A DNA stretch of 64,000 nucleotides from Octopus vulgaris. Lineage: Eukaryota. Made by a program: the position numbers and the translations under genes. Position 1 is the first letter of the stretch, and every line of letters begins with the position of its first letter. Under the pieces are notes generated by a model. It was not told the origin of the DNA. It did no database searches and was given only the letters and a program-made list of their open reading frames with translations. The DNA lies in the NCBI GenBank assembly GCA_951406725.2, contig OX597816.1, positions 123,132,001 through 123,196,000 of the forward strand. Reading direction: 5' to 3'. Below, in pieces: positions 5,724-64,000 of this stretch.

Positions 5724-8662
5724 ATCCAGCTACAAAAATGCCTCATGATAATAGCAAAGGAGAATGGGCACCAGCCAGCCAGCCCAAAGGTTGGGCTGCA
5801 CCTGCCTACCTGTAAAAGGAAGGTGCAAGCACTTGTACTGGGTTGCGCAAGCATGACTTGCCTTATGATGGCTGATGGCCTAAGGAGAATCTTGGGGTAA
5901 GGTTGTGAAGTTGGAATGTGTGCAGTCTGTGTGGAAGGAGGACTGAGGTGTGTGAGGAATTGAGGAAGAGGAGGGTGGATGTGTGCTGTGTGCAAGAGGT
6001 TAGGTGGAGGGGCCAGGGTGTAAGATTTGTGGGAGTCAAGGGAAAAAGGTACAAGTTGTGGTGGTTGGAAAATAGCAAGGGGACTGGAGGTGTGGGAATT
6101 TTGGTGAAGGAAGAAATCTGTGAGAAGGTGGTAGAGGTCAGGAGAAAGAGAGACGGAGTGATGATAGTAGTATTAGCATTTGAGGAAGAGGGGGTGCGGG
6201 TATTTTGTGGGTATGGTCCACAAAGTGGAAGAGGGATCACTCCAAAAGGGCAGTTCTTTGTTGAAATGGCGAATGAGTGGGACTTACAAAAGGTAGATGA
6301 ATTGGTTTGGGGCATGGGTGATTTTGATGGACATGTTGGGAAATGGATCCATGGCATTGAGGGCATGCATGGGGGAAATGGAATTGGGGTGAAAGATTTG
6401 GAAGGAAGGATGCTGTTAGAGTTTTGTGATGAGAAAGCGTTGTGTGTGGTGAATACATGGTTTAGAAAAACAGAGAAAAGGAAGGTGACTTTTAGTGCAG
6501 GAGGGAATGAGACAGAGATTGATTTCATGTTGGTTGGCAGGAGGCAAAATAGAAATATCTGAGAGATGTAAAGACAATACCAGGGGAGTTGCAGCACAGG
6601 TTGGTGATTACTGACTTGGATAAGAGGGAAGTTACAAAGTGTGTGAGAAAGGGAATGGTTGAGAGGAGAAAGGTCCAGAAACTGAAAGAAGAAACAAAGC
6701 AAGGTTTGAGGAGAGAGTTGGGGAGTTAGTAAGCATTGATGCACCAGAAGTGAGTGGAAGGACGAAGGGTAGGAGAGATCGAGGAAATATGTGATGGTGG
6801 AAGGAGGAGGTGAGGAATGCTACAGTGAGGAAGAAGGAGGCACACAAAGCTTTATGTAATAATAGGAATGAGCAAATGAAAGTCAGGTATAATAACATGA
6901 AGAATCGTGCAAAAAGGGGGTGGTTGTGAGATCTATGTAGAAGGAGGCTGAGGAGAGGTTGAGCAGGCTGGAGGAGAACCCAGATAGAGCGTTTAGGTTT
7001 ATTAAATCAATGAAAAATGATGGAAGAGATGTTGAGGGAGAAAGATGCATGAGGGGGAGTGATGGAAGGTTGAATTTTAGTAAGGACAGGGGGAAGAGTT
7101 TAGAAGGAGCATATGGAGGGAATTATGAATGAGGAGAATGAATGGGATCAGAGGGTGGAAATTGCCGTAGTGAAGGTGCCAGTGGAGAGGGTTAGTCAGG
7201 AAGAAGTAGTGGAGACAATGAAGGAAATGAAAGCAGGGAAGACAGCTGGTCTGTCAGAAATAAGTGTGGAAATGATAACTGCAAGTGGAAAGATAGGGAT
7301 TGTTGTGACGATGGAACTCTGCCAGGAAATGCTGGATGGAAGAGGAATGCCAGATGATTGGGTACTAAGTGTGGTGGTACCAATTACAAAGGGGAAGTGA
7401 GATGTGATGAGTTGTGGGGAGTATAGAGGAGTGAAGTTATTGGAGCATGCAATGAAGATAATGGAAAGGGTGTTGGAGAGGAGAATTTGGAAAGGGGTAG
7501 ATGTGGATGAGATGCAATTTGGTTTTATGCCAGGAAGGAGGACAATAGATGCAGTGTTCCTTGTAAGGAGATTGCAGGAGGAATACTGAGATAAAGGGAA
7601 GGAGTTGTACATATGCTTCGTTGATCAGGAGAAGGCATTTGATAGGGTTCCAAGGAAGGTGATTGAATGGGCATTGAGGAAGAGAGGTGTACTAGAGGTA
7701 ATAGTGAGAACAGTGATGAGTTTGTATGTGTGAGCATTGAATCAGAGCTGTCAGAGGAGTTTGTAGTGGAAGTTGGTGTGCATCAGGGATCTGTGTTGTC
7801 ACTATTGTTGTTTGCAATAGTGGTTGATGTGGTAATGGAGAGTGCAAGAGAGGGACTGCTAATGGAGATACTGTATACAGATTACATTGTTCTGATGAGT
7901 GAGACGATGGAGGGATTGAGGGAGAGTTTTGGAAATGGAAGGAGGCATTTGAGAGCAAGGTACAAATCAGGAAGATAAAGGTGATAGTGAGTGGGGTGGA
8001 AGGAGAAGTATTAGTAAGGTGGATCTATGTGGTGTATGTGGAAGGAGGGCAATGACAAATACAGTGTTGTGTACAAAATGTGAGAAATGGATTCATGGTA
8101 GATGTATGAAAATGAAGAAGGTGATCCCAAGACTGGCAAGAAAGTTTGTTTGTGGAAGATGAGAGAAAGGAGCTGGAGGGCTGGCAAGGTCAGTGGAAAC
8201 ACTTTGTGATGGGAGGAGACAGTGAGAGGGTTTTGTTAATTGGGAGATAAGGTGGATGTTAGTGGTGGATGTGATTTGACAGCAAGAGCAAGACTTGGCT
8301 GGGTGAAGTTCAGGGAATGTGGAGCAATATTATATGGAAAAAGGTTGAAAGGAAAGGTGTGAGAGCTGCAATGCTCCAAGGGTGAATGGAGTGCAGTGAT
8401 ATGAGCATGTGTTGAGGAGGGATGAGGAGCATGTTCTGAAGAGGGTGCTAGAGTTTGAGGTAAACGGACAGCAAAAGCGAGTTAGACTGAGGAAAATGAG
8501 GACAGGATAGGTGGATGAGGAGATTGGGAGGGTTGGCTTAAGAAGGGAGAATGTCCAAAACTGGAAAAGATGGTGAGATGGTTGCTATGGCATTGAGATA
8601 GATCCAGCCACCCCCATTAATGGGGACAAAACCCGGATTCAACATGATGGATGATGATGATG
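5723..8662 (+). mobile_element. Degenerate, nearly full-length RTE-clade LINE (AP endonuclease + reverse transcriptase pseudogene)
   Basis: APE motifs (RRVDVCCVQEVRWRG, GVGIL, MGDFDGHVG, TEIDFML) in ORF 5918-6562. RT motifs YRGVKLLEHAMKIMER, QFGFMPGRRTIDA, GVHQGSVLS and LYTDY (decayed YADD) at 7113-7978. Many stops and frameshifts; ends in GATGATGATG. Confidence 0.93.
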
Positions 8663-8687
8663 ATATATATAAAAAGGATATATATAT

Positions 8688-8984
8688 TTGCATTGGGAAC
8701 CACTTCACATTGACAACCGGTGATTTCACATGCTGATGATGGGTCAAAAATCCAGAAACCCGGGTCTGTGTGTATCACATCAGGTTGGAGATGGGAAGGA
8801 TGGCTTCCCTTTGCAAATACTGATAGGGTACAGAAAGTGTGTCAGTAGCCAGCTGGAAGAGGTGTCTTCCTAGTGCTACAAGCTACAGTAGCATCCACCC
8901 TTAAGGGCTAGCCACATTTCAGTGGCAAATATATTTCATGATGTCATGCAGCTACTGTTTATACCTCACTCAGAGATTTATTAC

Positions 8985-8987
<3 letters not shown>
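8688..8987 (+). mobile_element. Hammerhead-bearing ~300-bp element (retrozyme/Penelope-pLTR-like unit, family H1)
   Basis: Colinear homology with 63561-63858 along its length; contains the hammerhead at 8720-8778; 3' end runs into (TA)n. Confidence 0.75.
8720..8778 (+). ncRNA. Type I minimal hammerhead ribozyme
   Basis: Stem I CACATG/TGTGTG, extended by GTGAT/ATCAC across an internal loop. Core CTGATGA (8733-8739); stem II TGGGT-CAAAA-ATCCA; GAAA (8755-8758); stem III C-CCGG-G with palindromic loop; cleavage triplet GTC (predicted cut after 8766). Confidence 0.8.
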
Positions 8988-37262: not shown

Positions 37263-37545
37263 TTTTATTTCTCACTTGTTTTAGTCATCATACTGTGGCC
37301 ATGCTGGGGCACCAGCTCAAAGAATTTTTAATCAAATGTATCAACCCCAGTACATGAGTCAATATGAATGGGATAAAAATGCAAGTTGAGCAAGTAAAAT
37401 TCAGACTATATATGTTTCCTAGCTAGCAGATCTCTGACTTAATAGTTACTCAACGAAGGGTACTTTTCTAGCTACTCATCTGGTTGAAGTTACCTTAACT
37501 ATATCATCTTTAAGGCATCTCAAATTAACTCACCAAAGATATAAA

Positions 37546-38405
<860 letters not shown>

Positions 38406-43986: not shown

Positions 43987-45083
43987 CAGTAACAAAACAG
44001 GCAAAGGAATATCTAAGTGAATTACGAATACAACAAATTTCGGAATTAGACATACAAGAAATAAGCACAGAAAAAAGCTAAGCACATGAAAACCTATGCT
44101 TAAACTGCTGCCTTAGATATTCTTATTGATAAATGGCAAGAAAAACCTGTCAATGGCAAATACCCAAAGAGAGCAAATAATGCCGATGTTGACAAAGCCC
44201 TAACCCATCAATGGCTAATGGCCTCTGGCTTAAAATCAGAAACAGAAGGGTTTATCATAGCAGCTCAAGATCAATGCCTACCTACAAGGAACTACCTGGC
44301 CAACATATTAAAGAACGGCAGTAGCCCAACATGTCGTGTATGTCAACAAAATGAAACCATTGATCATGTTGTCTCCAAGTGCAGTCTTCTTGCACCGACA
44401 GAGTATCTCAACAGGCATGATAGAGCTGCACAATATATTCACTGGGTAATTTGCAAAAGCCTGGACTTAGTCCGTGAATAATACTGGTGGGAATACATAC
44501 CATCTCCAGTGCTTGAAAATGATCACATCTCACTCCTCTGGAACTTCACCATTCAAACTGACAGAAAGATAGATACGAATAGGCCAGACATCATATTGAA
44601 AGACTTCAGACAAAACCATGCCTCCTCATTGATAAGACTGTCCCAATCGATATAAATGTATCTGTCAAGACCTACCAAAATCTGAGCAAGTATAAAGATC
44701 TTGAAATAGAAATAAGAAAAATGTGGAACCTGAAGACTAAAACAATACCTGTTGTCATAGGTGCCCTGGGAATGATAGCAAAAGGGGATGATTGTTACCT
44801 AACTCAGATACCAGGAAACCCAAAAATGGCAGAAATTAAAAAGATAGTGCTCATATCCTACGCAAAATACATTCTATGTAATCTCAAGTTTTAAAACAAA
44901 CATAATTTTCTTATGGTTTCTTAGACATTCACTAGTACAACACTAAGTACAAAACCAAATATATGGCACCCTAGGCATAACACCAACTTGAACTTCCAAC
45001 TTGTTGTCTCTTGAGGTCTCTGAGTGAGATTTGGAGTGAACTTGTACAAATGTAAAGCAAAAGTCAAACATAGAATAATAATA
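43984..45083 (+). mobile_element. 5'-truncated R4/Dong-clade LINE inserted in (AAT)n
   Basis: ETEGFIIAAQDQ, CCHC knuckle CRVC...ETIDHVVSKC, RHD, NRPDI, KYKDLEIE, IPVVIGALG. Flanked by AAT repeats on both sides. Confidence 0.88.
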
Positions 45084-47548
45084 AGAAGAAGAAGAAGAAA
45101 TGGTGATGCTGACCTACCAAATGTATTTCAGCTAACCTGCATAAGACATGCTTGTATTCTTAACTTTAAGGATTGGGCTGCATAGAAATTTGCCTTCACA
45201 GAAATCCAAATACCTAAAATCAACATGATAAACAACTGTAAATCTGTGGAGAAAGTTGATTACTACACATTTTAGAAAACAATTCAGTATCTATCATCAT
45301 TATTGACCACCTCTATAGTCAAATCTAGAACTTTAATTAAGTTTAGATTAACGATTATTTAAGAAATGAATGCTTATTATGTTATATAAACGATAATTTA
45401 AGTAGAAGTTTGAGAATCAATAGTATAACAGAGGCTTTAATCTTAATTAGACCTAGTTAAGTTATTTATGTAGGATTTTTATGTAGAGATTTTAAGCAAG
45501 TTTTATTCAATAAGTTTTGAACAACAAATTCATAATTCATTATGCTGATTATGTTGGAGTTAGAAAAGAGGATTTCAATAGTTGCCACTGAGCACCAGTT
45601 ACATCTACTATCACCCCCTCTGTAAGGAGGAGGATTACCTACAAAAGAATGCCAAAATGGAATATCATATATGCATCCACACTTTGAGGTCCCAGATGAA
45701 CTTAGCCAATGAAGTGTAGTTCTCTTTTCTTTTGTATTTATAAGAATCAATATGGTTATGTCCTTGATCTTGGATTTTGAAGTTATAGCCTTATGTAGTA
45801 ATGGACATTGTCAAGTGTTTTAACAGAGATCTTATATATTAAATTATTTCTCAAGCATTGGTTATCTAAATAGCATTTATCACAGTTTCTCCAGTTGCTC
45901 ATTCTATTAGGTATGTAGCTATAATAAGCTCTATTCTATAAATGCTAATATTGTTAATAAGAAGAGGTACCATATCATTATCATCACTGTTTTTTGCATC
46001 ACTGAGATATTTGCTTGAATTTCTTCAATCACCCCTTCCTTCCTTCCTTCCTTCCTTCCTACCTAGCTACCTATCTACTTACCTGCCTACCTGCCTATCG
46101 ATCTGTCAGTGTGTGTGTACACAATGGGTTTCTTTCTGTTTCCATCAACCAAGTCCATTAAAATGGCTTTAGTCAGCCCAAAGCTATAGAAGAAACTTGC
46201 TCATGGTGCTATGGAGTCATGTAGTTGGGAATCAAGCATCTTAACAATACCTGTACTTACAAAGACAGCCATAAATTTTGATGGGGTTGTTCCAATGCAA
46301 CTGACCCCAGTATTTGAATAGCATTTCTTTTATCATCTTTGGACGATAATAGTAAACATGCACAGGCAGTTATGAAAATAGAGGGGATATTCAAAATCCC
46401 TTCTATTTCCATAATATTAAAGCTTGAACTTATTTCATTAATATCATCAGCCTCTTTGTGGTGGGAAGTGGAACTTTTTGGATCTGATTAACTGTGATAA
46501 GCCTTCAGTGTCGTACAGTAACTGATCACTTAGAGCAACATCTCTGATGCAGCAATATGCACTAGAAACAGGTTAAAAGTAAGAAGAGAAAAGAAAGTTT
46601 TCACAAATCTACATCAGGATATTTTTTTAAGATATAGACTTTTTTAATGTACATTAATGATGTCTAAGCAATAGCTAAAGCAAAACAATCTTGATGTGCT
46701 TGCAGTTTACTACTTCTTAAAATATATTGATAAAAGTAGTTGTTAATCAAAGATACCTCCTACAACTTCAATGCTTTCCAATTTTTTTTATCCTTTGACT
46801 TTTAACATTGTTTCAATGCTATTCAGTAGTTTATGGATTATATATTTTATACAATTCTGATTTTCATAGTTATATTCTTCTGAAACACGGTGTTTTCAAT
46901 TTTATTTTATAATTTTGAATTCATTAGTGGTATATTTGAACAAATAGATCATTTTCTCAGAAAAATATTTTGAGATGGCTGTGTGGTGAGCACTACAGAC
47001 CAGCAAAGTAAGCTTCTAGCAAACTGACACTGCAACTTGATTTTAATTCTCAGCTGATGCTGCTCAGTATCCTAAAGAATATCACAGAAAAAACATGTCA
47101 TTAATAATATTGTAGAGACTTGTCTCAAAAATAAAATTATTTGAAAAATGATTGTGTCAAAGTTTAGGAGAATCTAATTTCCATTTGTAATATTTCTGCT
47201 GTCACACTCCAGAAGTCAAAGAGTGAGACCCTACTTGGTTGATGGACCTACTAGATATTGCAAGCAAATTCCTTCAAATCATGTTCTACTATTTTGAAAA
47301 AACAAAAAGGGGACACTTATTTATATATATTTTAAAATATATGCAAAAATAAAGAGAAACAGATAAATTGGTCAGGCTTGGAACGTCTTTGGTCTTGAGG
47401 CAGACTCTATAAGAGCTAGCATGCAGTTAAATAACAACAATCAAAAGAAACTTCCAGAAAATATTGCTAATTTTAATCAACTAGTGTAATGTAAATAATA
47501 AAGGAAGAGTAAAATAAATTGGAAAATCTTGGTAAAGAAGTAAAAAGT

Positions 47549-47970
47549 GGAGCAGGAGTGGCTGTATGGTAAGGAGATTGCTTCCCAACCACATGGTTCC
47601 GGGTTCAGTCCTTCTGCATGGCACCTTGGGCAAGTGCCTTCTACTGTAGCCTCGGGCCAACCAAAGCCTTGTGAGTGGATTTGGTCGATGGAAACTGAAA
47701 GAAGCCCATCGTATGTATATATATATATGTATATATATTTATATCTATGTGTGTGTCTTTGTGTCTGTGTTTGTCTCCCCATCACCACTTGACAGCCGGT
47801 GTTGGTGGGTTTACATCCCTGTAACTTTGTAGTTTGGCAGAAGAGACATATAGAATAAGTACTAGCCTTAAAAAATGAGTACTGGGGTTGATTCATTCAG
47901 CTAAAAATTCAAAGCAGTGCCTCAGCATGGCCACAGTATAATGACTGAAACAAGTAAAAGATAAAAGATA
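47549..47970 (+). mobile_element. SINE family A copy
   Basis: Colinear with 20465-20885. Confidence 0.85.
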
Positions 47971-55626: not shown

Positions 55627-55669
<43 letters not shown>

Positions 55670-55769
55670 TTGTATGTATGTATATATATGTTTGCATGAA
55701 TGTATGTGTATATATGTATATATATGTATGTGTGTGCGTATAAATATATATGCATATATATACATGTAC

Positions 55770-55828
<59 letters not shown>

Positions 55829-55907
55829 AAGAGAGGAGAAGAGAAGGGAGAGGGGCATAGGGAGGGAGAGACATGCACACATGTAAATATACACAGAAAT
55901 GAATAAG

Positions 55908-56312
55908 TAGGCACTGGAGTGGCTGCGTGGTAAGAAGCTTGCTTCACAACCACATAGTTCCAAGTTCAATCCCACTGCATGGCACCTTGGGCAAGTGTCC
56001 TCTGCTATAGTCCTGGGCTGACCAAAGCCTTTTGAGTGGATTTGGAAGATGGAAACTGAAAGAAGTCTGTCATATATACATATATATATATATGTATGTG
56101 TGTGTTTGTGTGTCTGTGTTTGTCCCCCCACCCATCGCTTGACAACAGGTGTTGGTGTGTTTATGTCCCTGTAACTCTTAGTGGTTTGGCAAAAGACACC
56201 GATAGAATATTTACTAGGCTTACAAAAGAATAAGGCCTAGGATCGATTTGTTCAGTTAAAGGTGGTGCTCAAACATGGCTGCAGTCAAATGATTGAAACA
56301 AATAAAAGAATA
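55908..56312 (+). mobile_element. SINE family A copy
   Basis: Colinear with 20465-20885. Confidence 0.85.
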
Positions 56313-57857: not shown

Positions 57858-58082
57858 TTACTCTTTTACTCATTTATTTGTTGCAGTCATTTGACTGTGG
57901 CCATGCTGGAGCACCATCTTTAGTCGAGCAAATTGACCCCAGGACTTATTCTTTGTAAGCCTAGTACTTGTTCTATCAGTGTCTTTTGCTGAACTGCTAA
58001 GTTACGGGGATGTAAACACACCAGCATCGGTTGTCAAGCAATGTTGGGGGACAAACACAGACACACAAAAATATACACACAC

Positions 58083-58132
<50 letters not shown>

Positions 58133-58254
58133 GACAGGCTTCTTTCAGTTTCTGGTCGGCCCGAGGTTATAATGGAAGACACTTGCCCATGATGCCACAC
58201 AGTGGGACTGAACCTGGAACCATGTAGTTTGTAAGCAAGCTACTTACCACACAG
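57858..58254 (-). mobile_element. SINE family A copy (small internal deletion)
   Basis: Reverse complement of the family A sequence. Confidence 0.85.
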
Positions 58255-61089
58255 TTCAGAACTTTTTTTTTTAGATTAAAATTGTTATGCCCAAGTACAA
58301 TTCAATTCAATATATATGTGGAGATATACTTACCTGATAATTTTCAGATCTATGTTTCAAATTTTTGGCATTGGCCAAAAGAACTGGTGATTAAATATAG
58401 AAATTCTAATTTTCAGACCTATGTTCCAAACTTTTTGTCATGACTATAATACCCTAAGTAAGTTTTGAAGGTTTATAAAAAGCAACACAACTGAATTGTG
58501 ATGCATGGCTAACAATTGACATATTTGTAATATTTGAAAACTCTTTTCTTACAATTCAAACAATATTAGTTATAATTTATTCATAATTATGTCTAGTCTA
58601 TATCATGGCATAGAATTATGTAGGGTTTGTTTATGGATGCTACAATGGTTTGCATAGTTGTTCATTGCAGTGTAAAATTAGGAGACAACAAACTTTTTAC
58701 GGTCTGATCAGCATGAAATTATGAATGTTGTGGATTTATCTTTTGTTTGGTCTGCAAGACAGGAAAGACGTTTTTGCTCATAGATGAGTTTGATTGGAAA
58801 GCAAGACTGGTCAACTTAACACTGGAATAAATTTCAAGACATAGCTCTTTCATTAAGAAATTTGCTTCCTGAATATGTAGTTTTGGGCTCAATCTCTATG
58901 CATCTTAGGCAACTTTCTTTTGCAAATAGCCCCGGGATTATCAAAGTCTTATGAGTGGATTTGGTAGACAGAAACTGAAAAAGTCTCTCTCATAGTGTGT
59001 GTGTTTGGGATGACGGATTGGGATAAGAAGTATTTCAATCTATAGCCTGAGTATAAAAATTTGTAAAAGATGAGCGTAACTATCTGAAAAAATATAGCCA
59101 TCGCTACATAATTTGTTTGTTGTAAAAAGCTACTCCATCTAATTAAATGTTGATGAAAATAATATTGATTTTTACCATTTATGCAGTTATTTGATTAAAA
59201 TTTGTAATCTGTCTACCAGTTAAAATATGTGCTACTGTTCCTCAAGTATTATTATGATACCTTTAACAAGCAAAATATTTTCTTAGGTAGATTGTGTTTA
59301 TTGGTGTTTTCATATTTCTTGTGGTATAACCTTATTATCTTCTATTAATTGGTGTCACACATTCTTATGTGAAGGGCTCTAAAGAAGGAAATATTGCACA
59401 AGAGGTGTATAGGGAACATGGCAGTGGACTGAAAATAGTTTGAGAATTTTTTATTTCTAAGCAACACAATGAAACATCAGACCATGAAATATTGAGAAGT
59501 TTGTGTTGTTTTTAATCAATGTCGTCCATGATCAATTAAAACTGTAAAAAGGCATTTTAATCATGAGTATCTTTATCAATTTTTTCTGGACAATTATCTA
59601 AGTTTGAATTCTCCCATGTGTTCTATTTTACTTTAAAAAACTGTATGGAGTATGTTGTAGGAAATTTAACGACTATTGCTAGCAGGTTGAGTGATAAATG
59701 TAGAGGCTCTATTGTAGAGTGGTAATGAAGTAGGAATCGTTATCAAAATAGTTAGAGCATCAGAAAAATACTTGACTGCATGTGTTTCAGCTCTTTATGT
59801 TCTAAGTTAAAATCTTGCCAGGGTCACCTCAGCCTTTCCTCATTCCTAGCTTAACATCATAAAGTAACCAAACAAATACAAAGGTTGAAGTAGGGACTAA
59901 CTTTCTCACCTTGATATTGCTGTCCTTCTGCCTAAATTAGATACAATTATTAAATAACTAACAACCATGGTCTGTTGCCATATAAGCTGTTCTAATCCTT
60001 TTATTTTCAGATAAGGAAAATTATTTATGATGATAGTACAATCCTATTTATGAGAAGTGTAGAAAAACAATAGAATATGAAGAAACTAGAGGTGTTCTAT
60101 GCTTACAAATAGTAATAAAATGTGTTCAAATGGCGTGGAATAAATTTTCTACCATGATTTCAATGACTAAAATACTTGACTTCACATATTCTTCATAGAG
60201 TAATATTAATTCCACAGTTTCTATTCTTTGTATTAATTAAGATAACGAACTTCATTAGCAACATCGTAACCAGTGACAGTATGAAACATTTTTCTCTCTA
60301 TTACTCCTAAGCCACATAATTTTTGAGTGAATGAACAATTTTGTGTTTGTTGGACAAGAAATATTTCATCCAGCTGTCACAATAATTTAATTTCTTTTAG
60401 ACATTTCAGTATTCTTTACCAATTACACTGTCTTCTATAATTGACACTATTCTTATTTGAAACCTATTCAATGACTAGATGGCAGTGAATAAACAGAATC
60501 ATTAGAACTTCAGACAAAACTCTATGAAGTAATTGTTCCAGTTTTTCGTGTTTAAGTTCAAATTATGTCATAGTCAACTTTTTCTTTTATCTTTTCTGGA
60601 ATTGTTAAAATAAAGTGCAAGTCCAAGGGTGATAGATTGAAGGAATTGTCAGATCACAGGATATTAAAATTTTGTGGTGTTTGTTCAGGCTCTTTGTGTT
60701 CTGAATACTCAGGCAGGTATAACGATATTTGTGTGTATCTAGCCAACAAGGTGGTGACTTGGCTAAAATACCAAAAGGAAGGCAATAGGGTATCACTTTT
60801 GTATTCTCACATAAAATTCCATGATAAGCACATAGCACTTTTCAAGGAAGTCACCTTTACACTGATGGAGCAGAAAGAAAAGAAGAATTGAACAAAGGCT
60901 TTGCCCTGTCTTCTAAACTCAAAGTTTATCAATAGTTTAATTCAGATAACATTAGTATTAATTATTCTTTGTATCATCATAAAGTTAAGGAAAAGAAGTT
61001 GTAACATTTGTTCCTATCTAAGAGTCATTAGCGATAGAAGCTAAATAGTTTCAGATTTTATCTTGCTAGGCAAAGGCATGATTAGATGA

Positions 61090-61752
61090 AAGCATGACTT
61101 TGTAACTGAAATCCCTTTGCAGCTACACAGTATGAGGTTCAGTCCTACAGTGCAGCACCTTGGCTAGTATTTTCTACTATAGCCTCAGGCCAGCCAATGC
61201 CTTGTAAGTAAAGATACATTCTTGAGCCGTGCCGAGTCATAAGGGTTGGTTACCTGGTTTCCATGGCATGTAAATTACCCACCTGGACAGGGTGCCTGAC
61301 CATCACAGGATTACTCATTTTTGCCAGTTGAGTGGGATGGAGTAATGTGAAATAAAGTGTTTTGTTCAAGAACACAACACATCACCCAGTCCAGCAATCA
61401 ATGCTACAATCTTACAATCACAAGTCCAACACCCTAACCACTAAGCCACGCATCTTCATATGCCTAGCAAATGAATTTGGTAGACAAAAACTGAATAGAA
61501 GCTTGTCATATGATGTATGTATGTGCTTGTATTTGCTGACCCCGCCACCTCTACCAACAGCAACACTGTCACTACTTCACAGCCAGTATTGGTTTGTTTA
61601 CATCTTCATAAATTAACAGTTCAGTAAAAGAGACCAATAGAATAAGTACCAGATTTGACAAATGATTATTGGTGTTAATCTGTTTGACTAATTTTTTCAA
61701 GACAGCACCTTAGCATGCTACAATCCAATGGTTCAAACAAATAAAAGTAAGA
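61090..61752 (+). mobile_element. Family A SINE split by a family C-like SINE (~61212-61465, opposite strand)
   Basis: The family A head stops at GCCTTGTAAGT and resumes at GAATTTGGTAGAC; the insert shares a domain with 28055-28362. Confidence 0.7.
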
Positions 61753-63376
61753 ATATATATCTATTGTGCTTGAATAGCTGAAAATATTTTTATTGGAGCT
61801 ATCATTTTTGTAGCTGGCTAGCTTTCCTCTAGTTAATCATACTATCGTGAAGTCCCAACATCATTTCTTATTTCCTTTTAGCCAGACAAATTGAAATAAT
61901 AAGAGATACATAACAGACTTAGTGATATAATTGACTTGTGTGTTTTAAACTAATGACCATTTATTCACATGTTCATTAGTTTAGCCCTTTAACCTCACAG
62001 CCACTATATCTCATGAATCGATGATGGCTTGCTTGCTTCACTGGTTCAGAAATTCCTAGCTCTCGTCTGGTAATTTATTTGCTGCTGTCACAATTAATGT
62101 CAGTTATCTCATTAGATTCTCTATTTCATTTGATATTAGAAATAAAATTAAAAAATTACTGCTTTTGTAAATTAATTCTTTCTTTTAAAGTGTGACACTT
62201 ATTGAGAATGAAAATTAAAGAAAAGAATCAATATTGAGAAAAGTTGTCTTAATTCGTTTTTCTAAAAGAAGTTTATTTCATATTTTTTTAGATTTAAAAA
62301 AAAAAATCTAAAATAGTTATTTGGTATGTTTCTCAAAATACACAATCAGCCAAGCTATATATTCTTACTAAAAATATAATATGGGATAATTGAGCACTGA
62401 ATTCTTTTAAAATGATTTTATAAATAGAATTAATTCTTTACTATGGATAATCAATACTACTTATATCATATCAAAGTAATTGTATTTTAAACTTAAAATT
62501 ATTTTTTATAAACAACTGCATATTTCTCATTCCTTCCTTTTTTTGTTTACTTTTTGTTCTAACTATGATTCCTTTTCTTATACTCTTTGTATTCACTATA
62601 TCTTTCAACCCTTTTTGCCATCACTTATATCCTCCCTTAAGTGACACATACGCCCACAACATCTTATATGAATCCCTTTCTGAAGTAACTCATTTCTCTT
62701 TCCACATCCAACCCATGCTCATTTCCATTTTAGATGAGAATTTATGAAGATACACAAGGCTGTACAGGATTTGGGGATAAATATATAGATCGAGGGAAGT
62801 AACTTATAAAGAAATCTTAATTGTTACCTTAAATCTTATCATCCTCCCATTCGCCCTGGGATCTTTGCAAGGAGCTGCATTCACCATGGATTGATTAATT
62901 CCCTGATTATTTTATGTGAGAATGCTTGTGCATGTCTAGGCTTATAAATACACATGTATGTACACATGCATCTCCATACAAAATATGCTCACACTCACAG
63001 ATGCACACACATAGACAAACAAACATGCACACACAGACAAACATACACACACATACACGTGCACACATACACATACGTTCACACACACATATACACATGC
63101 ATGTGTGTGTATGTTGTGTATCTATCAGAATGCCATGATAGATCGTTAGCTCCAACACGCATTTTTTTTCTCTCCTTGTTTACTTTTGTAAATTTTCCCT
63201 TTGTATATATATATATAACGTAAAGTATACTAGCTATCAATATGGCTAACCACTAAGGGTGGGTGTTACCGTAGCTTTTAGCCCCCGGAGATCATCGTCT
63301 CCAGCTGGCTTTAGGCACACTGTCTGTGCCCTTATGGTATTTGCAAAGGGAGGTCATCCCTCTCTCGTGAGCCTAA

Positions 63377-63435
63377 GCAATACATACGGACTGCAGTTTT
63401 GAGGTGTTTGCCTCTTGTCAACGCACGGTAATCAC
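63377..63435 (-). pseudogene. Inactivated hammerhead ribozyme, left arm
   Basis: CGTGCG TTGACAA GAGG-CAAACA-CCTC AAAA C-TGCA-G TC CGTATG: stems intact, core positions C3, G8 and G12 substituted. Confidence 0.7.
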
Positions 63436-63594
63436 CGGTTTACGATGAAAAGGAAGACTTGTTTGCAAATACTTATGGGTTTTTCTAGTAACTACTGTCA
63501 CTGATTTCGAAAAACTGTCTGCAAGCAATAATAAATTTCTGAACGAGATGTAAACAGTAATTGCAAACAGGTCTTCCCTTTTCATCATAAGCCG

Positions 63595-63653
63595 GTGATT
63601 ACCGTGCATTGACACAAGGCAAACACCTCAAAACTGCAGTCCGTACGTATCGC
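63595..63653 (+). pseudogene. Inactivated hammerhead ribozyme, right arm
   Basis: CGTGCA TTGACAC AAGG-CAAACA-CCTC AAAA C-TGCA-G TC CGTACG; positionally homologous to 8720-8778. Confidence 0.65.
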
Positions 63654-63855
63654 TTAGGCTTACGAGAGAGGGATGGCCTCCCTTTGCAAATACCATAAGG
63701 GCACAGATAGTGTGCCTAAAGCCAGCTGGAGATGATGATCTCCTGGGGCTAAAAGCTACAGTAACACTCACCCTTAGTGGTTAGCCATATTGATGGCTAG
63801 TATACTTTACGTTGTCGAGCGGTTACTGTTTACATCTCGTTCAGAGATTTATTAT

Positions 63856-63858
<3 letters not shown>

Positions 63859-63942
<84 letters not shown>
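63859..63942. repeat. (TA)n + (GA)n microsatellite
   Basis: Directly visible. Confidence 0.95.
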
Positions 63943-63944
<2 letters not shown>

Positions 63945-64000
63945 TGCACATGTATATATATATATCAAAGTAAAAGGGAGAGGCAAACAAATTGGCAAAA

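Follow-up and report, generated by a model that had tools for sequence, protein, structure and literature searches.

A segment close to the end of the 64,000-nucleotide stretch of Octopus vulgaris DNA analyzed here (the window), positions 63217–63858, is very probably a single insertion of Penelope-like (PLE) type that was copied from a template longer than one unit. The 353-nt unit is non-coding and non-autonomous and resembles a retrozyme, and the anatomy of the insertion points to a PLE endonuclease/reverse transcriptase acting in trans. As to the template itself, we lean toward a linear, uncut RNA, transcribed from a tandem source copy in which the ribozyme had been damaged beforehand. A circular or multimeric RNA template had been proposed in a preceding sequence-only reading; of that proposal, the need for more than one unit stands, but the permuted order of the left arm gives no support for a circle, since it is the ordinary PLE layout, its 9 'missing' nucleotides are the start of a tail, and the loss of hammerhead position G12 is shared by both arms. 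The parts of the insertion are as follows.

63204–63216, no strand: (TA)n target, left side, from the sequence
63217–63560, minus strand: left arm, 344 nt, a partial tandem (34–37 nt from the end of the upstream unit, then linker and core) with the short 3′ end
63527–63560, minus strand: beginning of the left arm, a copy of the unit's 3′ end and pLTR-like remnant of the upstream unit, 33/34 identical to 63823–63856
63469–63526, minus strand: 58-nt linker from unit end to unit start, also present in other family copies (contig pieces)
63556–63560, no strand: head-to-head junction (63560/63561), with 4-nt microhomology at 63556–63559 and then one mismatch
63561–63858, plus strand: right arm, 298 nt, an inverted, 5′-truncated copy with the long 3′ end
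63814–63858, plus strand: 45-nt 3′ extension ('tail'), right arm only, its first 9 nt being 63814–63822
63859–63908, no strand: (TA)25 target, right side, then (AG)16

Read on the minus strand from 63560 to 63217, the left arm passes from the unit's 3′ end through the linker into the unit's start and core. Its opening stretch (63560–63527), previously described as equal to 63823–63856, is nearly so: 33 of 34 positions match, the exception being a single transition at 63537/63846, and the match can be extended to 35/37 (BLAST within the window, E = 7e-11). The coordinates bear out the earlier arithmetic of a 58-nt linker and of 344 nt that the 9-nt spacer (63814–63822) completes to 353 nt, and in the tandem layout the left arm amounts to 1.0 unit only. 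The unit has a GC content of 43.9% and stops in all three sense frames. An inverted repeat with 63577–63813 extends over 237 nt at 94%, far above chance expectation, and alignment of the two arms over 286 positions gave 17 substitutions (15 transitions and 2 transversions) and one 1-nt gap. This divergence of 6% means that the arms may derive from two related RNAs. The hammerhead in each arm places the sense strand on minus in the left arm and on plus in the right, so that the arms stand head-to-head; the 'GUC site' of the earlier reading proves to be the triplet at which a type I hammerhead fold would be cleaved, and the sense strand is thereby fixed as had been assumed. Because the linker was found in the left arm only, and the contiguity of 9-nt spacer and tail in the right arm only, neither arm can have arisen by fold-back copying of the other. 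The chance that random ends would share a 4-nt match such as that at the junction is 0.0045. All three 3′ ends of family copies in the window (3/3) adjoin (AT)n, a setting in which a target duplication is not readable.

Both arms, and a second copy of the family elsewhere in the window, carry a hammerhead fold at homologous positions.

63376–63436, minus strand: type I hammerhead fold of the left arm, cut predicted after 63389
63594–63654, plus strand: hammerhead fold of the right arm, more decayed, cut predicted after 63641
8687–8987, plus strand: second, diverged family copy, 5′ end uncertain (8670–8690)
8719–8779, plus strand: intact type I hammerhead of the second copy, with C3–G8 core, GAAA and palindromic helix III, cut predicted after 8766

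Judged against the hammerhead core consensus (PMC7151607), the left-arm fold combines helix I (6/6), an extension (6/6), helix II (4/4), a palindromic helix III, a U3–A8 core and a GUC triplet. In both arms G12 is replaced by A, a change that lies in a CpG, and in the right arm A9 and G10.1 are changed as well. Replacement of G12 by A cripples hammerhead cleavage. The second copy is 75.7% identical over 206 nt (E = 3e-35) and ends at the same long 3′ end, before (AT)n; the long 3′ end agrees within 1 nt in both tail-ended copies of the window (2/2) despite a divergence of about 25%. A type I hammerhead descriptor gave a single strict match in the 64-kb window, at 8733–8766, and among 100 dinucleotide-shuffled windows none (0/100) contained a match with equally long helices, against 7/100 at loose thresholds. 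Of 17 hammerhead pairs, 16 are kept in the comparison of left arm and second copy, four of them through changes on both sides, when counted with a hand-set register, since the alignment offsets the two cores by one column. The core pair is itself one of these double changes (C3–G8 in the second copy, U3–A8 in both arms). U3–A8 is a natural hammerhead variant described in Schistosoma PLEs (PMC4209133). Within a hammerhead of canonical helix lengths, such a core would be missed by standard descriptors. Rfam returned 0 matches over the window at gathering score; at E values up to 10 it returned 7 and 29 matches in the two loci, none of them a hammerhead and the best driven by (TA)n, and it likewise missed the hammerhead of the second copy, a copy immediately preceded by the end of a LINE remnant and by a (GAT)n stretch. 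A CTGA motif in the tail was considered as a ribozyme and rejected, as it has no fold support and the true motif lies mid-unit.

In both subfamilies a long stem (63469–63340 on the minus strand and 8687–8820 on the plus strand), which a repeated TTTGCAAA motif closes, carries the ribozyme at its tip. The base of the TTTGCAAA-closed stem is where the right arm begins, as perhaps does the second copy; reverse transcription may stop at this base, or an RNA may have its 5′ end there.

We compared positions 63120–63590 with Logan contigs of four runs, labeled organism A and B, at 85% likeness. Two of the runs were presumed to be RNA. This material consists of assembled contigs, in which strand, RNA ends, transcription and circles are not visible and from which rare variants are dropped. 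The family is very abundant and diverse: 1,707, 3,206, 526 and 106 contigs were placed per run, most of them less than 95% alike. The linker and the unit start are bridged, with at least 31 letters on each side, by five of the 32 pieces listed (there are 5,566 further ones), from three runs, and these five pieces carry 6–26 other letters and are diverged copies. In one listed piece (X13 record 1) core end, spacer, tail and linker are contiguous. Head-to-tail order in diverged copies makes the end–linker–start arrangement a trait of the family and no local accident, and the earlier concern that this junction might be unique to the locus falls away. None of the listed pieces spans two units, and none spans the inversion junction. 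Depth was 0 in the bins of 63568–63590 in X3, X5 and X13 and 14.7 in one X16 bin, in contigs that drop rare variants, so that this gap was given no weight either way. Joints from 63560/63564 to 63217 with the spacer (X3, X5, X16 and X13) repeat the continuity of the right arm only and are no evidence of a circle; on the question of a recurrent short 3′ end in other copies, two X5 joints among the 24 of 472 loose ends listed lead from 63217/63218 to microsatellite letters, in an unstated direction. Searches of metagenome contigs with two family motifs gave 0 matches, and one family motif gave 0 matches in viral contigs and 0 in genome contigs.

The contigs also place the locus within its family. 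At 63400 (G12, in GAAA), G makes up 99% of the depth in X3 and X5, while both arms have A. Among 15 places at which the family varies, the arms share a minority letter at 5 (63371, 63378, 63385, 63400 and 63406), where 76–99% of the depth differs; of the rest, the locus letter is shared at 2 evenly split places and the arms differ at 8. By its letters this pattern is that of one source lineage, apparently followed by decay. The places of the core pair are absent among the 40 of 84 variant positions listed, all of which reach at least about 19% in some run, and we infer that U3–A8 is probably the majority core of the subfamily to which the locus belongs, beside a C3–G8 sister subfamily. Summed depth drops 10- to 50-fold 5′ of 63360, for which 5′ truncation and subfamily divergence are both possible; as the left arm differs from the family at 8 places within 63363–63385, the drop was left out of the argument. 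Behind a loose end at 63374 in X16, two contigs lead into a ribozyme variant that retains GAAA and differs in its cleavage triplet and its palindromic helix III, which points to three or more putative subfamilies.

Feature by feature, the locus has the anatomy of a PLE insertion. Insertions of EN+ PLEs, as described in PMC8557442, comprise a pLTR partial tandem, an inverted 5′-truncated copy at the 5′ end, a tail of 30–40 nt at one end and (TA)n targets, and inverted PLE copies are usually head-to-head (PMC3846280). Partial tandem, inverted 5′-truncated partner, one-sided tail and (TA)n target are all present here, with a tail that at 45 nt is slightly above the quoted 30–40. In vitro, a purified lizard PLE (PMC11167929) nicked each strand of AT-rich DNA and extended it; synthesis began at two sites inside the RNA, the distance between which equals the tail, and ribozyme cleavage was not needed, with unprocessed RNA as the main substrate. 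We propose that both strands of the (TA)n tract would have been nicked and each would have primed one cDNA, the unit's short 3′ start site serving for one and its long site for the other. Each cDNA would have run through the uncut ribozyme site, and the left one would have continued from one unit into the end of the upstream unit, producing the apparent 'permutation'; the cDNA ends (344 and about 300 nt) would then have been joined at the 4-nt microhomology. The 9 'missing' bases would then belong to the beginning of the tail, which the cDNA primed at the short site left out. They lie between the short and the long 3′ start point, so that separate priming of two cDNAs is the best reading of the arms, and because the 5′ end of the left arm lies in the end of the previous unit, the template must have been longer than one linear unit, whether tandem or circular. 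The loss of G12 in both arms, against 99% of the family, suggests a source unable to cut itself. By inspection, none of the 13 open reading frames of at least 60 amino acids within 58000–64000 encodes a reverse transcriptase or GIY-YIG endonuclease.

Comparison with known systems places the unit between PLEs and retrozymes. With EN+ PLE insertions (PMC8557442; PMC3846280; PMC11167929) it shares the partial tandem, the head-to-head truncated inverted copy, the extension of one arm, a (TA)n target as in the Neptune, Hydra and Naiad clades, and a hammerhead inside the repeat that was read through uncut. It differs from them in being a 353-nt unit without a reverse transcriptase/endonuclease frame, in its 45-nt tail and in a junction with 4-nt microhomology only and no long palindrome; moreover, its hammerhead has canonical helix lengths, whereas that of most metazoan PLEs has the minimal form. 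Metazoan non-LTR retrozymes (PMC7229834; bioRxiv 10.64898/2026.07.22.740005) are likewise non-coding, 150–450 nt long (350–390 in mussel) and below 50% GC, with a canonical type I hammerhead with palindromic helix III, great abundance, head-to-tail order and a well-paired sense fold. In contrast to these, neither the listed contig pieces nor the locus contains an array in which two complete units each have an intact ribozyme, and the ribozymes of the locus are damaged and have a U3–A8 core; the PLE-type inverted insertion is a layout not described for retrozymes in the available parts of those two sources. Chlamys PLEs such as MRC1 (PMC8557442) are also non-coding PLE derivatives with pLTRs and head-to-tail insertions, but belong to a green alga and mostly lack a canonical hammerhead. 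Cercyon PLEs of Schistosoma (PMC4209133) have the same compensated U3–A8 core pair in a PLE-linked hammerhead, theirs being minimal, whereas the one here has canonical helices and a C3–G8 sister subfamily in the same window. With its size, GC content and predicted ribozyme features in agreement with the class, we regard the unit as retrozyme-like rather than as a proven retrozyme. The retrozyme likeness noted in the sequence-only reading holds in unit size and in the canonical shape of the hammerhead, and the Penelope pLTR partial tandem that it named proves the better frame; the two are no alternatives, as they probably reflect the same machinery.

The principal competing account keeps the PLE-type insertion and changes only the template. 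A 353-nt circular RNA, formed by hammerhead cleavage of tandem transcripts and ligation, would have been copied for almost one lap by the left cDNA, which stopped at its own start; we consider this possible but distinctly less probable than a linear source. The left arm does end 9 nt short of a full lap, which a null of uniform stops over 100–700 nt would yield in a few percent of cases, a rough, post hoc estimate from a single locus (n = 1), although the position of the junction is also explained by the microhomology. All three cDNA-like pieces in the window comprise 0.84–0.97 of a unit, none exceeds one lap and each reads across the cut site, among them the copy whose ribozyme is intact, and a circle is the simpler explanation for this pattern; against a circle, the PLE studied in vitro uses uncut RNA (PMC11167929). 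The canonical-shape hammerhead, palindromic helix III, 353-nt length and 44% GC match retrozymes that form circles in mussel, coral and axolotl (PMC7229834), and X13 record 1 unites core end, spacer, tail and linker in a single contig. Partial tandems also occur in Naiad and Chlamys PLEs without canonical hammerheads (PMC8557442), which speaks against the circle. Joined into a circle, the sense unit folds better than shuffled sequences (z = −2.8, versus −1.7 for the antisense; 60 shuffles each), but as a line it folds equally well or better (z = −3.6; 60 shuffles). G12 is absent from both arms and kept by the family, which weighs against self-cleavage of the source, but as a CpG change it could have occurred twice, and in a dimeric hammerhead an intact neighbor could still cut a damaged monomer, which would then be a stable circle. 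Two cDNAs on one circle would, in addition, overlap over most of their length. Dispersed permutation points, which had been suggested as a sign of circular templates, do not discriminate between the two, because with either template the 3′ ends of PLE copies are fixed and their 5′ ends vary. The locus is an old, damaged copy and alone decides nothing between chain and circle.

An origin at the DNA level after insertion, in which trimming and partial inversion reshaped a tandem array or a longer insertion (the left tail deleted into the TA tract, with an inversion during repair), appears improbable. The microsatellite setting speaks for it, the 6% divergence of the arms suggests an old locus, and the shared rare letters are also compatible with a local duplication. 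Nevertheless, the right arm ends exactly like the independent copy at 8987, the whole layout is the common PLE one and requires no further steps, and the parts unique to one arm (linker, spacer) need a pre-existing dimer, which leads back to a more-than-unit template. An assembly artifact, either a fold-back chimera or two joined loci, is highly improbable even though the contigs gave no independent record of the inversion junction, as a fold-back predicts identical arms and these differ at 17 of 286 positions, each with private sequence, while nonetheless sharing five minority letters and meeting at a microhomology. A MITE or other DNA transposon was rejected in view of the unequal arm ends, the partial tandem and the ribozymes.

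The window as a whole is AT-rich, animal-type DNA, rich in microsatellites and LINE remnants. A tRNA search of the window found none, and among 63 rows from TRF none had a period near 353. On the left flank of the insertion, 63132–63181 is a 50-nt piece of another very abundant repeat, at which summed depth equals the peak of the element; its loose ends lead to microsatellites and, in X16, to letters that look like the beginning of a further hammerhead core. The piece may therefore represent the terminus of a second PLE-type family within this TA tract. Further along the window lie a decayed LINE (5909–6562, plus strand, continuing to about 8660) with a frame matching Exo_endo_phos (PF03372, E = 5e-9), a retroelement fragment with zf-RVT (44104–44481, plus strand; PF13966, E = 4e-5, below the curated cut-off), an 864-nt imperfect (AT)440 tract (37539–38402) of possibly low assembly accuracy, and several copies of one short interspersed repeat with similar translations beside CA/TA microsatellites (47477–47896, 55628–56236 and 57937–58239).

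Several of the components of this account have precedents. Circles that template more-than-unit PLE copies were proposed in 2014 (PMC4209133), PLE enzymes have been proposed as helpers and circles as templates of animal retrozymes (PMC7229834; PMC4209133), and a derivation of animal retrozymes from PLE pLTRs was argued in 2026 (bioRxiv 10.64898/2026.07.22.740005), in a text according to which the mechanism of retrozyme mobilization 'remains to be elucidated' and which, as far as examined here, never uses 'tail' and has 'inverted' in a reference only. A search of the literature on cephalopod retrozymes or hammerheads and on inverted target-primed retrozyme insertions, confined to openly accessible papers, found none that describes the 353-nt family or reports this layout for a retrozyme. 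A retrozyme-sized unit in a complete PLE-type insertion provides anatomical support for a PLE helper. A bolder proposal, which we consider rather unlikely, is that a 353-nt circular RNA of the abundant U3–A8 retrozyme family is the direct template of PLE target-primed reverse transcription, copied from one of two fixed starts for at most about one lap, with two cDNAs joined head-to-head. If true, copy lengths across the genome would bear a one-lap signature, the first genomic evidence for a circle-templated route, and retrozyme mobility would be tied to PLE enzymes through insertion anatomy. With a very abundant family and fixed 3′ starts, the question of chain or circle becomes countable from the genome assembly alone.
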